Part shown: piece by piece, positions 37,469 to 40,860 of the stretch
Numbering within the stretch: position 1 is the first letter of the stretch
Layout of the letters: each line of letters starts with the position of its first letter
Origin: Bacteroidota bacterium
Lineage (GTDB): Bacteria; Bacteroidota; Bacteroidia; Bacteroidales; JAAUTT01
Assembly: GCA_030706405.1 (NCBI GenBank)
Contig: JAUZOO010000002.1
Span: 65,167 to 129,166 of the forward strand
Length of the DNA: 64,000 bases
Direction: 5' to 3'
Translations under genes and position numbers: made by a program
Notes under the pieces: model-generated
Told to the model about the DNA's origin: nothing
The model's input: the letters and a program-made list of their open reading frames with translations, nothing else
Database searches by the model: none

Positions 37469-37987
37469 ATGAAAATAAAGTTGTTTTTTATATGTGTATT
37501 GTTCGGAACCTCCGGGTTATTACACGCACAAAATTTTAAGACCATAAGGATTGGAAACCAGATTTGGATGGCCGAGAATCTTAATGTTGTGGTTCCCGGA
37601 AGCTGGACCTATAACGGTAGCACTGAAAATGGCCGGAAATATGGCCGTCTTTACACTTGGGAAGCAGCAAAGAGGGCGTGTCCCGCAGGTTGGCATCTGC
37701 CTACCGATAAAGAGTGGACCGAATTACTCGATCGCCTTGGAGGCGAAGATGTTGCCGGAAAACAGTTGAAAGCTGGCGGAAACTCTGGGTTTAACGCCCT
37801 TTACGGTGGCCTGTCGGATGTAGGGAACTTCCGCCTACTAAATTCCTATGGCACGTTTTGGTCTGCCTCGAGCTACGATGCCGACCATGCTTGGTATTTC
37901 TATATTACGGCAGCCAATAGTAATGTAACCAAAACGTATTTTAAAAAGGCGTACGGATTTTCCGTGCGGTGTGTAAAGAATAAATAG
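37469..37987 (+). CDS. FISUMP-domain (Fibrobacter succinogenes major paralogous domain) secreted protein
   Basis: IGNQIWMAENLN, GRLYTW, CPAGWHLPTDKEW and GFSVRCVK motifs. Confidence 0.85.
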   Translation: MKIKLFFICVLFGTSGLLHAQNFKTIRIGNQIWMAENLNVVVPGSWTYNGSTENGRKYGRLYTWEAAKRACPAGWHLPTDKEWTELLDRLGGEDVAGKQLKAGGNSGFNALYGGLSDVGNFRLLNSYGTFWSASSYDADHAWYFYITAANSNVTKTYFKKAYGFSVRCVKNK

Positions 37988-38154
37988 GTTAGGCAAATTG
38001 CATATTCAAAAGCACTGTTGAGTTATTTTGTGAGATTCTTCAGTGCTTTGTCATTTTATTTAGATTAATCTGTTTTTATAAAGAGTAATAATACTATAAA
38101 TCAACCGTTTAGTTTTTTATAAGCTTGTTCGGTTTTTATGGTTTTTTTTAGCAA

Positions 38155-38190
38155 TTTGTTTGTATAGCTTAAAAAGTAAAAGTACTTTTG
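38155..38190 (+). promoter_or_regulatory. Bacteroidota-type promoter of the MgtE_N-CBS/NRAMP operon
   Basis: TTTG at 38159..38162 and TACTTTTG (TAnnTTTG) at 38183..38190, with 20-nt spacing. Confidence 0.55.
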
Positions 38191-38253
38191 CAGCGTTTAA
38201 AAAAATATAGCCCCATGGACGAAGGCCCTGAGAATATAGATTATTATTTATCG

Positions 38254-38312
38254 ATTTAGAAGGGATAAACCGTTTTTGGGATGCTCCTTCTAAATTTAAA
38301 CAAAGAAGGAGG
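38254..38312 (+). promoter_or_regulatory. Leader with mutually exclusive hairpins that expose or sequester a strong Shine-Dalgarno sequence
   Basis: ATTTAGAAGG (38254..38263) pairs with CCTTCTAAAT (38286..38295). Alternatively, CTCCTTCT (38284..38291) pairs with AGAAGGAG (38304..38311), the SD upstream of the ATG at 38319. Confidence 0.55.
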
Positions 38313-38318
38313 TTTATT

Positions 38319-39593
38319 ATGTCTTCGATTAAGACGTTTTATTTTAGCCGTATTTTAGGTATTAAAGTTATCAATGCAGCCGGCAAAGTTATTGGCAAAG
38401 TAAAAGACCTTTTATTAGATACCACTCCTATAAATCCGGACGATCCCATTGTACGCCCTAAAGTTGTTGGGGTGAAATTGAAGATTAATGGAGATTTTCA
38501 GGTATTCGACTTTCAGTATTTTGAAGTATCTAAGGTTAACCGTCGTATTCGCATAAGTTACGAAAAACTTGAAACTCTTTCCGAAACTGAGATAAATAAC
38601 GGACTTTTTCTGGCCGATGTCATTCTCGATAAGCAGATTGTAGATCTTAACGGTCGCAAACTCGTACGTGTTAATGATGTCCGTTTGGTAACCATTGCCG
38701 AAGGAACCTTTGCTATAGCCGTTGATGTTGGCATCGAAGGCCTGTTGCGGCGCATTGGGATTGCCAAAGAACTCAAGGCTGTACTTAAAGCAATGAGACT
38801 TAGCCTTCCTGCCAAGTTTATTCTTTGGGATGATGTTGAAACCATCGATTACAGCAATTTTAACATTAAACTGTCGAAAACATCATCGAAATTAAATACC
38901 CTTCACCCTTCGGACCTTGCTGATATTATCGAGGATTTAGGTAAACAATCGCGCGCAACCGTGTTCTCTTCGCTCGATGAAGAAACTGCCGCCGATGTAT
39001 TGGAAGAACTCGAAACTCATGCCCAGATTAATATCATCGAAAGCCTTCCGGTAGAAAAAATGGCCGATGTGCTTGAGAAGATGCCTGCCGATGAGGTTGC
39101 CGACATCCTCGATGAGTTGGAAGACGAAAAAGCCGAAATGCTGTTGAAGGAAATGGAAGCCGAATCGTCGCAGGAAGTTCGTGAACTACTCGAATATCCC
39201 GATAATACTGTGGGGAGCATCATGAGTACCGAGTTTGTATCATACTATGAATCGCTGACCGTAGGCGATGTTCTTGAGGATTTTCGTCAGAAAAAACCAG
39301 ACTCCGAAGCATTATATAATCTCTTTGTTACCAATGAGAAAGAAGAACTCGTGGCTACCGTTTCCTTACGCGATTTAATCATATCGTACCCCGAAGTCAA
39401 ACTTAGCGAGATTATGGAGGAAACTCCGGTAACGTTATTCGACGATCAAAAGGTGGACGAAATTGCCGAAATTATTTCGAAGTACAACCTGCTGGCGATC
39501 CCGGTGGTTGACCATCAGAACCAGTTGCAGGGAATGGTGGTTATCAACGACGTAGTTGAAGATTTAATTAACGAACGCAGAACGAACAGGTAA
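38319..39593 (+). CDS. Soluble PRC-barrel x2 + MgtE N-domain + CBS-pair protein (MgtE cytosolic sensor module without a transmembrane domain)
   Basis: LHPSDLADIIEDL...AADVLEEL...MPADEVADILDEL acidic MgtE_N repeats followed by a CBS pair. The protein ends where the MgtE membrane domain would begin. Confidence 0.8.
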   Translation: MSSIKTFYFSRILGIKVINAAGKVIGKVKDLLLDTTPINPDDPIVRPKVVGVKLKINGDFQVFDFQYFEVSKVNRRIRISYEKLETLSETEINNGLFLADVILDKQIVDLNGRKLVRVNDVRLVTIAEGTFAIAVDVGIEGLLRRIGIAKELKAVLKAMRLSLPAKFILWDDVETIDYSNFNIKLSKTSSKLNTLHPSDLADIIEDLGKQSRATVFSSLDEETAADVLEELETHAQINIIESLPVEKMADVLEKMPADEVADILDELEDEKAEMLLKEMEAESSQEVRELLEYPDNTVGSIMSTEFVSYYESLTVGDVLEDFRQKKPDSEALYNLFVTNEKEELVATVSLRDLIISYPEVKLSEIMEETPVTLFDDQKVDEIAEIISKYNLLAIPVVDHQNQLQGMVVINDVVEDLINERRTNR

Positions 39594-39609
39594 TAGGGGA
39601 GGTTGTAAG

Positions 39610-40860
39610 ATGTTTAAATTGGGAATTCAAAAAAATATTTTCAGAAGAATAGCTTTGTTTTTGGCTATTTTAGGACCAGGCATCATCACCGGGAGTGTTG
39701 ATAATGATGCCGGCGGAATAACGGTATATTCTGTGGCAGGGGCTACATACGGTTATAATCTACTTTGGACGCTGATTCCTGCGTTTATTGTGCTTGTGGT
39801 TATTCAGGAGATGAATGCTCGCATGGGGATTGTTACCGGTAAGGGACTGGCCGATTTAATTCGCGAAAATGCGGGGGTAAAAGTCACCTTTTTTATCTTC
39901 ATTGGATTGTTAATTGCCGATATTGGCAATACTACCACCGAATTTGCCGGGGTTGCGGGTAGTATGGAGGTTTTTGGTGTCAGTAAATATATTTCTGTTC
40001 CTATTGCTGCTGCTATGGTGTGGATATTGGTGGTGAAAGGGACGTATGTAATTGCTGAACGTATATTTCTCATATTCAGTGTGTCGTTGCTTACGTATGT
40101 GGTATCGGCGATTATGGGAAAACCTCATTGGGGCGAAATCGGTGCTGCAGTTGTTCATCCCCAGCTTCCTGTAAACTCTACCAGCCTGGCTATGATTATT
40201 GGGATTATCGGTACTACAATTGCCCCGTGGATGCAGTTTTACATGCAGTCGTCGGTTATTGAAAAGGGCTTGAAAATGAAAAATTTTAAGTATTCGATGA
40301 TCGATATTGTGGTGGGATGTGTTGCAACCGTGGTGGTGGCATTTTTTATCATCGTGGCGTGTGCCTCAACCCTTCACGAAAAGGGTATTAAAATTGAAGA
40401 AGCCAAGGATGCTGCGATGGCCCTGCAACCTCTGGCTGGAGCTCTTGCCGGACAGGTTTTTGCCTTTGGGTTGTTTATTGCATCCATATTTTCGGCGACT
40501 ATTTTGCCACTAGCTACGGCTTTTTATGTTTGTGAAGCATTTGGCTTTGAGGCTGGCATTGATAAAAAGTGGGAAGAAGCTCCGGAATTTTATGTTTTAT
40601 ATACAGCCATATTGGTTATTGCCGCGGCCATCATCCTTATTCCCAGCGCACCGTTAATAACCATTTCGGTATGGTCGCAGGTGCTCAATGGGTTGTTGTT
40701 ACCGGTGGTGCTGTTGTGTATGATTTTGCTAGTAAACAACAAGAAAATTATGGGCGAATACACTAACAAACCTTTAAATAATATTATTGGTTGGGGTGCT
40801 GTAATTGTGCTGATAGTATTGTCACTTATGCTATTGGTATTGCCATTGTTCAGTAAATAA
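39610..40860 (+). CDS. NRAMP/SLC11-family transporter with NRMT-type (Mg-transporter-like) site substitutions
   Basis: GPGIITGSVDNDAGG replaces the DPGN motif. GTTIAPWMQF replaces GAxxMPH. 416 aa, polytopic. Confidence 0.8.
   Translation: MFKLGIQKNIFRRIALFLAILGPGIITGSVDNDAGGITVYSVAGATYGYNLLWTLIPAFIVLVVIQEMNARMGIVTGKGLADLIRENAGVKVTFFIFIGLLIADIGNTTTEFAGVAGSMEVFGVSKYISVPIAAAMVWILVVKGTYVIAERIFLIFSVSLLTYVVSAIMGKPHWGEIGAAVVHPQLPVNSTSLAMIIGIIGTTIAPWMQFYMQSSVIEKGLKMKNFKYSMIDIVVGCVATVVVAFFIIVACASTLHEKGIKIEEAKDAAMALQPLAGALAGQVFAFGLFIASIFSATILPLATAFYVCEAFGFEAGIDKKWEEAPEFYVLYTAILVIAAAIILIPSAPLITISVWSQVLNGLLLPVVLLCMILLVNNKKIMGEYTNKPLNNIIGWGAVIVLIVLSLMLLVLPLFSK

Follow-up and report, generated by a model that had tools for sequence, protein, structure and literature searches.

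We analysed a 64,000-nucleotide stretch of a Bacteroidales genome (phylum Bacteroidota; GenBank assembly GCA_030706405.1, contig JAUZOO010000002.1, positions 65,167 to 129,166 of the forward strand), which we will henceforth refer to as the window. The subject of this study is the 5′ leader of a two-gene operon in the window that codes for a soluble MgtE-type sensor protein (gene 1) and an Nramp-family transporter of the Mg2+-transporting NRMT type (gene 2). In this leader and its orthologues we found a short upstream open reading frame (uORF) with coding-type conservation, two covarying and mutually exclusive helices, a recurring geometry of uORF and helices, and an association with Mg2+ transport genes. 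We consider it very probable that the leader is a uORF-containing cis-regulatory switch for Mg2+ import genes, and to judge from its sequence it looks like an undescribed Mg2+-responsive translational switch rather than a riboswitch. More specifically, and with a probability of roughly 0.55, we propose by analogy that it is a leader-peptide translational attenuator, i.e., that Mg2+-dependent pausing or abortion of ribosomes on the uORF would decide whether the import genes are translated.

Two alternative helices share one anti-Shine-Dalgarno segment

A first-pass annotation of this DNA had claimed that one segment of the leader, complementary to the Shine-Dalgarno (SD) sequence of gene 1, can pair either with a decoy or with the ribosome-binding site itself. 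Both stems proved to be exact in the window. Specifically, the decoy helix comprises 10 bp, with perfect complementarity between ATTTAGAAGG (38254-38263) and CCTTCTAAAT (38286-38295), and the SD helix comprises 8 bp, with perfect complementarity between CTCCTTCT (38284-38291) and AGAAGGAG (38304-38311); AGAAGGAG sits inside the SD region AGAAGGAGG, 5 nt 5′ of the ATG at 38319. The two helices are mutually exclusive because nucleotides 38286-38291 are common to both, and their duplex energies are similar (-10.4 and -10.7 kcal/mol, respectively). On folding, the decoy helix grows to 12 bp (38253-38264 with 38285-38296), and the SD helix (38285-38291 with 38304-38310) acquires an outer helix (38264-38271 with 38311-38318) ending at the base next to the start codon, so that this form would hide everything up to the start codon. 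We refer to the decoy strand as segment B, to a small local hairpin as segment C and to the anti-SD strand as segment D (Table 1). In the structure that we call ON, B pairs with D around hairpin C, and in the one that we call OFF, the 3′ arm of C together with D pairs with the SD and the spacer that follows it.

The whole window leader is barely more stable than shuffled sequences (z -1.70), so the significance of these helices must come from a comparison of orthologues. Orthologous operons were gathered from relatives and from a collection of species-representative genomes, and their leaders were then read. Alignment A1 is a sequence-only MAFFT alignment of 76 leaders; the z-scores and the analyses of geometry and SD sequences used 91 distinct leaders. 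RNAalifold on A1 already recovers the helix between decoy and anti-SD strand. Within the same alignment, standard pairs occupied 75% of the cells of the ON structure (37-46% in slid-partner controls) and 80% of those of the OFF structure (39-55%), percentages that are inflated by the derivation of both structures from folds of the same sequences. The counts of double-sided changes are not inflated in this way, and such changes were found at 17 of 18 pairs of the ON structure and 12 of 14 pairs of the OFF structure. The ON structure had a covariation score of 0.290, compared with 0.07-0.12 for slid controls and 0.203 for shuffles (0 of 500 shuffles scored as high), and the OFF structure one of 0.223, compared with 0.09-0.14. 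Hairpin C, weak in the window, forms 4-7 bp in orthologues, with a variable sequence (e.g., CCGG...CCGG) and compensatory changes.

Alignment-free comparisons gave the same picture. The B:D duplex had a mean energy of -15.35 kcal/mol for cognate pairs of strands versus -10.95 kcal/mol for non-cognate ones, and the D:SD duplex -17.72 versus -14.02 kcal/mol; in both cases, none of 2000 permutations was as low. Over the 91 leaders the mean folding z-score was -3.65 for the region of decoy and anti-SD strand and -3.62 for that of anti-SD strand and SD. With the first 30 nt held single-stranded, the mean energy was -18.8 kcal/mol for ON and -16.5 kcal/mol for OFF (with B unavailable), and the two lay within 3 kcal/mol of each other in half of the leaders. 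These near-equal energies suggest a leader that is poised, with ON slightly favoured whenever B is free.

Both alternative helices are thus under selection. The first-pass annotation had made its claim depend on a comparative alignment of orthologous leaders, and in Bacteroidales both pairings turned out to be conserved and to covary. This supports the view that the leader is cis-regulatory and that its expression platform consists of two mutually exclusive helices competing for one anti-SD segment.

A short upstream open reading frame is the most conserved part of the leader

The most conserved element of the leader is one that the first-pass annotation had not noticed, namely the uORF. In all Bacteroidota orthologous leaders examined, an ATG is followed by GAY GAN GRN CCN GCG at the head of an open frame of 9-23 codons, giving N-termini of the form MD(D/E/G)(G/D/Y/L)PA, or M-D-(D/E)-(G/D)-P-A in short. 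Nucleotides 1-5, 7, 13 and 14 (i.e., including the ATG) are invariant in 96 leaders, in which the entropies of the third positions of codons 2-5 are 0.34, 1.31, 1.55 and 1.08, compared with 0, 0, 0.38 and 0 for the first positions. Codon 4 aside, about 90% of the departures from the consensus are third-position changes, either synonymous or from D to E. For example, ATGGATGATGGTCCGGCG in one leader (L122) still codes for MDDGPA, and across leaders Pro is encoded by CCT, CCG, CCC or CCA, Gly by GGC, GGA or GGG (GGT in L122) and Asp by GAC or GAT, while codon 3 is Asp or Glu. Some lineages have MDGDPA in place of MDDGPA, a swap of residues that is easier to explain at the level of the peptide than at that of the RNA. 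Past codon 6 the peptide varies in both sequence and length. This third-position variation bears the signature of selection on a short N-terminal peptide, and the uORF is presumably translated.

The position of the uORF relative to the helices is also constrained. In most leaders the distance from the uORF AUG to the start of the core of B (i.e., of the part that pairs with the anti-SD strand) is 41-48 nt and does not depend on how long the uORF is. The uORF stop falls inside the B:D helix or just 5′ of it in 76 of the 91 leaders, most often with the stop codon beginning 1 nt ahead of the SD-like core. A common motif, AUUAACCUGAUAUAG, closes all three frames (UAA, UGA and UAG) at this place. 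By its sequence, the leader thus combines the marks of an attenuator: a conserved short ORF of coding type, an exclusive helix that hides the SD, and an ORF end that overlaps the switching strand.

The first-pass annotation had instead likened the alternative stems to the platform of a translational riboswitch or thermosensor, without being able to match the leader to the M-box, yybP-ykoY or other riboswitches. The absence of a match is borne out by the Rfam search: none of the Rfam 15 families (M-box and yybP-ykoY included) gave a relevant hit in window positions 37900-38500 at E ≤ 10, and no family matched nine related leaders at the gathering threshold. The riboswitch or thermosensor reading itself was not supported, given this result, a conserved block that is a short ORF of coding type, and a region from uORF start to B whose folding is no stronger than that of dinucleotide shuffles (mean z +0.33 for the 91 leaders). 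A mutual-information scan for a partner of the conserved uORF block found no Watson-Crick covarying partner; its top signals were phylogenetic (e.g., column 57 versus 115 combined G-G and T-T, which is not pairing). The best downstream duplex of the block had an energy of -11.26 kcal/mol for cognate sequences and -10.86 kcal/mol for a reversed-block control.

Two candidate structures were rejected on these results. A structured aptamer was dropped as the main reading given the z-score, the lack of a covarying partner and the lack of an Rfam match. A four-segment layout of the ermC or mgtQ kind, in which the 5′ part of the uORF would pair with the decoy, had been suggested by minimum free energy (MFE) folds and showed a small difference between cognate and non-cognate pairs; it was rejected for the leaders of NRMT operons on the reversed-block control and the comparison with shuffles.

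Other explanations of the conserved block, AUGGACGAYGGCCCUGCG, can be considered. If the leader were a ligand-binding riboswitch or an RNA thermometer, the block would belong to an aptamer or metal-binding fold, the ATG in it would be there by chance, and the balance between B:D and D:SD would respond directly to ligand or temperature. A two-helix expression platform is indeed typical of translational riboswitches, and the same operon is regulated by an M-box in Clostridia, which provides a precedent for a metal-sensing RNA at this place; moreover, the block is GC-rich within an AU-rich leader, and conservation at the third positions of codons 2 and 6 exceeds what coding demands. Set against this are not only the negative searches above but also the way in which the block varies, with a 3-nt period around an invariant ATG, the variability in sequence and length of the stretch between block and B, and the retention of the block upstream of CorA genes despite a quite different downstream platform (see below). 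We regard this explanation as improbable. We give still less credence to a second one, in which the block would be the site of a trans-acting factor (an RNA-binding protein, a small RNA or, at +20 to +40, a DNA operator) and the ORF coincidental or secondary. Codon-periodic substitutions, the swap of D and G and the invariable ATG would be unexpected in a site for a protein or small RNA, and the window sequence has no palindrome or repeat typical of operators, although the fixed distance of 24-28 nt from the -7 promoter box would suit an operator or an early-transcript site.

The Shine-Dalgarno sequence of gene 1 is exceptional

SD sequences are rare in this genome, as the first-pass annotation had supposed from roughly 15 other starts in the window: AGGAGG occurs at -20 to -4 of 26 out of 4059 crude ORFs (6.3 expected), which makes that of gene 1 exceptional. 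GGAGG is near-invariant in the leaders of gene 1 orthologues, with a spacing of 5 nt in 68 of 86. An exact match of at least 9 nt to the complement of the 16S rRNA 3′ tail was found in 53 of 91 leaders, where the tail is the general Bacteroidia sequence, taken from general knowledge (the 16S 3′ tail is absent from the assembly). Part of this extension is required for pairing with D, so its meaning as an extended SD is ambiguous. The annotation had also described strong SD sequences before both genes. Both are present in the window genome, with GGGGAGG before gene 2 (start at 39610; window positions 39594-39609), a word common to some related genomes, but only the SD of gene 1 is conserved across the family, since an SD-like word precedes gene 2 in just 20 of 67 orthologues. 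McNutt et al. 2023 (PMC9976891) report that none of the rpsU genes of Bacteroidales meets their criteria for an extended SD.

Outside the window, several of the few genes with a strong SD in the same genome are nif-like and lie together on contig C15 (approximately 168019-177803). They include a NifH-like gene (MRKVAIYGKGGIGKST), a neighbour that is possibly NifD and a homocitrate-synthase-like gene; these genes are a small minority with SD sequences in a genome that otherwise has few.

The leader module precedes several kinds of transport genes

The operon in the window belongs to a known type of Mg2+ import operon. The translation of gene 2 has D-A-G-G in helix 1 (DNDAGG) and T-x-x-A-P-W in helix 6 (GTTIAPW), and therefore carries the binding-site substitutions that define NRMTs, namely N to G in helix 1 and A to T and M to A in helix 6 (PMC8806188). 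NrmT genes are usually preceded by a gene for a homologue of the MgtE cytoplasmic domain, and such operons are regulated by an M-box in Clostridia (Shin et al. 2014, PMC4072509).

The module was also sought by pattern searches. At the level of the order (301 genomes), a search for ATGGAYGANGRNCCNGCG gave 26 matches versus 2 for the reversed pattern as a control; about 20 of the 26 precede gene 1 orthologues and are spread over many families. At the level of the genus there were 14 matches in 13 genomes versus none for the control, and at that of the phylum 12 versus 6 control matches in 401 genomes, with a single genome being a true carrier. The element is thus essentially confined to the order Bacteroidales, and the carriers found are all uncultured genomes. 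Gene 1 orthologues with approximately 60% identity also occur in two genomes labelled as Akkermansiaceae or Verrucomicrobia metagenome-assembled genomes (L094 and L109), in whose leaders we found no uORF, no Rfam family and no M-box; both leaders are GC-rich, and the taxon labels may reflect binning or gene transfer.

The module is not tied to the NRMT operon. In four genomes (G005, G009, G011 and G455; loci L147, L148, L136/L155 and L138, respectively) it precedes a gene for CorA, which in G011 and G455 matches the Pfam family (9e-49) and has the GMN motif. Three of these, the congeners G005, G009 and G011, have no NRMT operon, and all three carry the module before CorA. Since the downstream platform differs there, the N-terminus of the uORF appears to be the portable, conserved part. 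The CorA loci have an MD(E/D)GPA uORF followed by a second small ORF of 29-32 codons, which in G011 contains STFYFKR and resembles the N-terminus of gene 1, and a long terminator-like helix that ends in a U run about 260 nt 5′ of corA. From its sequence, this platform looks like a transcription-attenuation version of the same sensor.

A duplicate of the leader was also found 17 kb from the full operon in G006 (locus L137, contig C18), before an intact lone NRMT gene. It is followed there by a 14-codon remnant of gene 1 (MKSFHTFYLNHITK and a stop codon), and the NRMT gene has an SD-like GGAGGG of its own. It seems that duplication has spread the module and that the first codons of gene 1 travelled with it. 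The window genome itself has a second copy, on the minus strand of contig C2, with a uORF (MDEGPATRLLTVSMER and a stop codon) that starts near 112217 (locus L151, outside the window), an anti-SD-like segment, CCUUCUGUAUCA, and a weak SD, UAAGG. This copy lies directly 5′ of a gene for a 460-residue porin of the OprB family (Pfam 2.9e-32), and an OprB-family porin also lies 3′ of the module in another genome (G270, locus L111). The OprB porin may be an outer-membrane channel under Mg2+ control.

A proposed model of Mg2+-dependent translation of the leader peptide

The genes served and the presence of a uORF together suggest Mg2+ as the signal, by analogy with MgtL and MgtQ of Salmonella. Chadani and co-workers showed that an N-terminus rich in Asp, Glu and Pro (a DE/P sequence) causes the 70S ribosome to disintegrate within roughly the first six residues, an effect that is stronger at low Mg2+ (10.1101/2021.02.02.429294); small residues favour this abortion, and the empty exit tunnel cannot counteract it (10.1101/2021.02.02.429294). 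From this analogy we infer that the uORF is translated, that its DE/P motif causes Mg2+-dependent pausing or abortion, and which way the switch is set.

In the proposed attenuator, the transcript would begin about 20 nt 5′ of the uORF, whose codons 1-6 would encode an acidic, proline-containing N-terminus of small residues, and the ribosome itself would act as the Mg2+ sensor. When Mg2+ is low, the ribosome would pause or fall apart on the MDDGPA nascent chain and never reach B; free B would pair with D, the SD would be left open (ON) and the importer would be made. At sufficient Mg2+, the uORF would be translated to its end, ribosomes would unwind and occupy B, D would pair with the SD along with the spacer as far as the start codon (OFF), and the importer mRNA would be silenced. 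Given a footprint that reaches about 15 nt beyond the first P-site base in the 3′ direction, a ribosome at codons 5-6 would protect the leader to about nucleotide 30, just short of the helix, and in going further it would have to unwind B.

Several points weigh against this model. MDDGPA has D, E or P at 3 of 5 residues, plus G and A (MDDDPA has 4), compared with the 4 of 6 used in the published screen for intrinsic ribosome destabilisation (10.1101/2021.02.02.429294), and as a DE/P motif, with just three such residues among the six that follow Met, it falls short of the EPDP of MgtL. Intrinsic ribosome destabilisation is known for the ribosomes of Escherichia coli and Salmonella only. The ribosomes of Bacteroidia sequester their anti-SD and are reported to ignore SD sequences (PMC7797042, PMC9976891), at odds with the proposed use of the gene 1 SD. 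The choice of codons is narrow as well: 92 of 96 leaders use GCG at codon 6, and 90 of 96 use GAC at codon 2. This goes beyond the needs of coding and indicates that some constraint at the level of nucleotides or codons remains. The uORF stop precedes the B core by 13-17 nt, or lies past that core, in 15 of 91 leaders. Finally, unconstrained MFE folds of whole leaders mostly keep the SD paired at every simulated ribosome position, so a thermodynamic model alone predicts no switching.

The same device of uORF and helices could also serve another signal, e.g., the supply of charged tRNA-Pro, tRNA-Asp or tRNA-Gly, the activity of EF-P, polyamines or general translation capacity, with the uORF reporting the speed of translation. 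A Pro preceded by Asp or Gly is a slow context for peptide-bond formation, and the invariant Pro codon of the uORF lies in just such a context. It also fits this explanation that the Pro codons of mgtL were first described as proline sensors, according to a passage in 10.1101/2021.02.02.429294, and that OprB porins are annotated as carbohydrate-selective, meaning that not every gene served is a proven Mg2+ gene. Nevertheless, bona fide importers of Mg2+ make up most of the genes served (NRMT, accompanied by an MgtE-type sensor protein, and CorA, which has the GMN motif), and the action of a similar leader in Salmonella has been traced to Mg2+ through ribosome destabilisation (PMC8092293); we consider a signal other than Mg2+ unlikely.

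Comparison with known leaders and wider implications

The Mg2+-dependent attenuator that we propose has parallels in several known systems. In Salmonella, mgtQ is an 8-codon uORF between mgtC and mgtB whose Asp2 and Glu5 control a helix hiding the mgtB ribosome-binding site (Choi et al. 2021, PMC8092293). It shares with the Bacteroidales leader a very short uORF, acidic residues near the N-terminus, translational control and a Mg2+ transporter gene, and ribosome destabilisation on the uORF, which decides the sequestration of the ribosome-binding site in mgtQ, is what we propose for Bacteroidales. The two come from different phyla and have no sequence similarity; moreover, mgtQ is intergenic, whereas the Bacteroidales element lies in a 5′ leader that adjoins the promoter. 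In mgtQ four segments (1:2 and 3:4 versus 2:3) are involved and segment 1 is part of the uORF, whereas the Bacteroidales leader has three segments, with the uORF stop in the decoy, and a 1:2 helix of the mgtQ type (i.e., of uORF with decoy) is not supported here by the comparisons with shuffles (z +0.33) and with the reversed control (-11.26 versus -10.86 kcal/mol). Unlike those of the mgtQ host, the ribosomes of the organism studied here normally ignore SD sequences.

Enterobacterial mgtL-mgtA (and corL-corA) likewise has a DE/P leader peptide whose Mg2+-sensitive translation sets alternative RNA structures ahead of a gene for Mg2+ transport (see also PMC11552253), and MgtL (MEPDPT...) uses N-terminal DE/P abortion at low Mg2+ to switch on mgtA (10.1101/2021.02.02.429294). 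There, the output is transcription elongation or Rho-dependent termination, and PhoPQ also acts, whereas the output in Bacteroidales would be SD sequestration. Neither MgtL nor MgtQ is homologous to the Bacteroidales peptide, and MDDGPA resembles MEPDPT in composition only (acidic residues and Pro). The M-box (ykoK) of Clostridia occupies the 5′ leader of an operon with the same pair of genes and presumably serves the same physiological purpose (PMC4072509). It is a large structured aptamer that binds Mg2+ directly, whereas the Bacteroidales leader has neither an M-box match nor a structured aptamer region. In ermC and cat attenuation, the position of a ribosome on a leader ORF selects helices that hide or expose the downstream SD, much as we propose for the short leader ORF here; in those systems a drug-stalled ribosome covers the first of four segments, whereas in Bacteroidales the decisive event would be a failure to reach the decoy, with no drug involved. 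Finally, rpsU of Flavobacteriales, where bS21 regulates its own synthesis (PMC9976891), is another Bacteroidia gene with a rare, unusually long SD, although the gene and the order are different.

A literature search for the peptide strings and for Mg2+ leader peptides in Bacteroidetes found no description of this element, within the incomplete coverage of that search. To our knowledge, no Mg2+-sensing cis-regulator has been described for Bacteroidota. If the model is right, the sensing of Mg2+ through ribosome integrity by an acidic, proline-containing nascent chain would have arisen independently in Bacteroidota, at a great distance from the enterobacteria, which would argue that it is a general solution. 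It would also delimit a group of genes under Mg2+ control in uncultured Bacteroidales, among them an OprB-type porin with no earlier link to Mg2+. The gene 1 leader would then join rpsU as a second natural example in which a strong SD is important to normally SD-blind ribosomes, and the question of when the Bacteroidia anti-SD is used would become directly testable.

A bolder extension builds on the finding that in Flavobacterium johnsoniae extended SD sequences are read preferentially by ribosomes without bS21 (PMC9976891). According to this speculation, to which we attach a low probability, there would be an order-wide Mg2+ stimulon in Bacteroidales, comprising the inner-membrane NRMT and the MgtE-type sensor protein that goes with it, CorA, and an outer-membrane channel of the OprB type, and gated by one six-residue nascent chain, with the Mg2+-dependent integrity of the translating ribosome as the sensor. 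Ribosomes whose 16S tail has been freed, e.g., those without bS21 when Mg2+ is scarce, would preferentially use the extended SD, and this would couple ribosome composition to Mg2+ homeostasis.

Promoter and other features of the locus

The promoter that the first-pass annotation had placed upstream of the leader (TTTG and TAnnTTTG words) is present in the window. Although the pattern alone is not rare (6 matches in the window, 4.3 expected), a TAnnTTTG-like box lies 24-28 nt 5′ of the uORF ATG in 73 of 75 orthologous leaders. Transcription is predicted to start a few nucleotides 3′ of the -7 box, which would leave the uORF with a 5′ untranslated region of about 20 nt. The coordinates of these and the other features are given in Table 1.

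Table 1. Features of the operon and its leader (window coordinates; domain matches with Pfam E-values)
Feature	Position	Strand	Description	Evidence
Promoter, Bacteroidota-type	38159..38190	+	-33 box TTTG 38159-38162, 20-nt spacer, -7 box TACTTTTG 38183-38190	sequence and pattern match
uORF	38215..38259	+	14 codons and TAG, MDEGPENIDYYLSI; conserved codons 1-6 at 38215-38232	ortholog conservation
Segment B, decoy (anti-anti-SD) strand, GATTTAGAAGGG	38253..38264	+	holds the uORF stop TAG (38257-38259); pairs with 38285-38296	
Segment C, small local hairpin inside the B:D helix	38266..38283	+	weak in the window (38266-67 with 38282-83; 38270-72 with 38277-79)	
Segment D, anti-SD strand, CTCCTTCTAAATT	38284..38296	+	partner is B or the SD; common to both helices in all 91 leaders analysed	
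SD region AGAAGGAGG (38304-38312) and spacer to start codon	38304..38318	+	in the predicted OFF state sequestered by 38285-38291, spacer by 38264-38271	
Gene 1	38319..39593	+	soluble PRC-barrel, MgtE_N and CBS protein without membrane domain	Pfam MgtE_N 9.6e-28, CBS 3.7e-16, PRC 3.4e-5
Gene 2	39610..40860	+	Nramp-family transporter, NRMT (Mg2+) type	Pfam Nramp 1.1e-96

Two further observations concern the region around the start of the uORF. A GAAAUCAA-like word is near-invariant in alignment A1 about 15-20 nt 5′ of the uORF ATG (approximately 38195-38205 in the window, where it is more A-rich), at the predicted 5′ end of the transcript, and may represent a transcription-start context or an SD-independent enhancer of uORF translation. 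On the minus strand, a terminator-like hairpin (GGCCTTCGTCCATGGGGCT followed by a T run; 38209-38227) overlaps the start of the uORF and is probably a by-product of the GC-rich uORF start adjoining the A-rich 5′ untranslated region.

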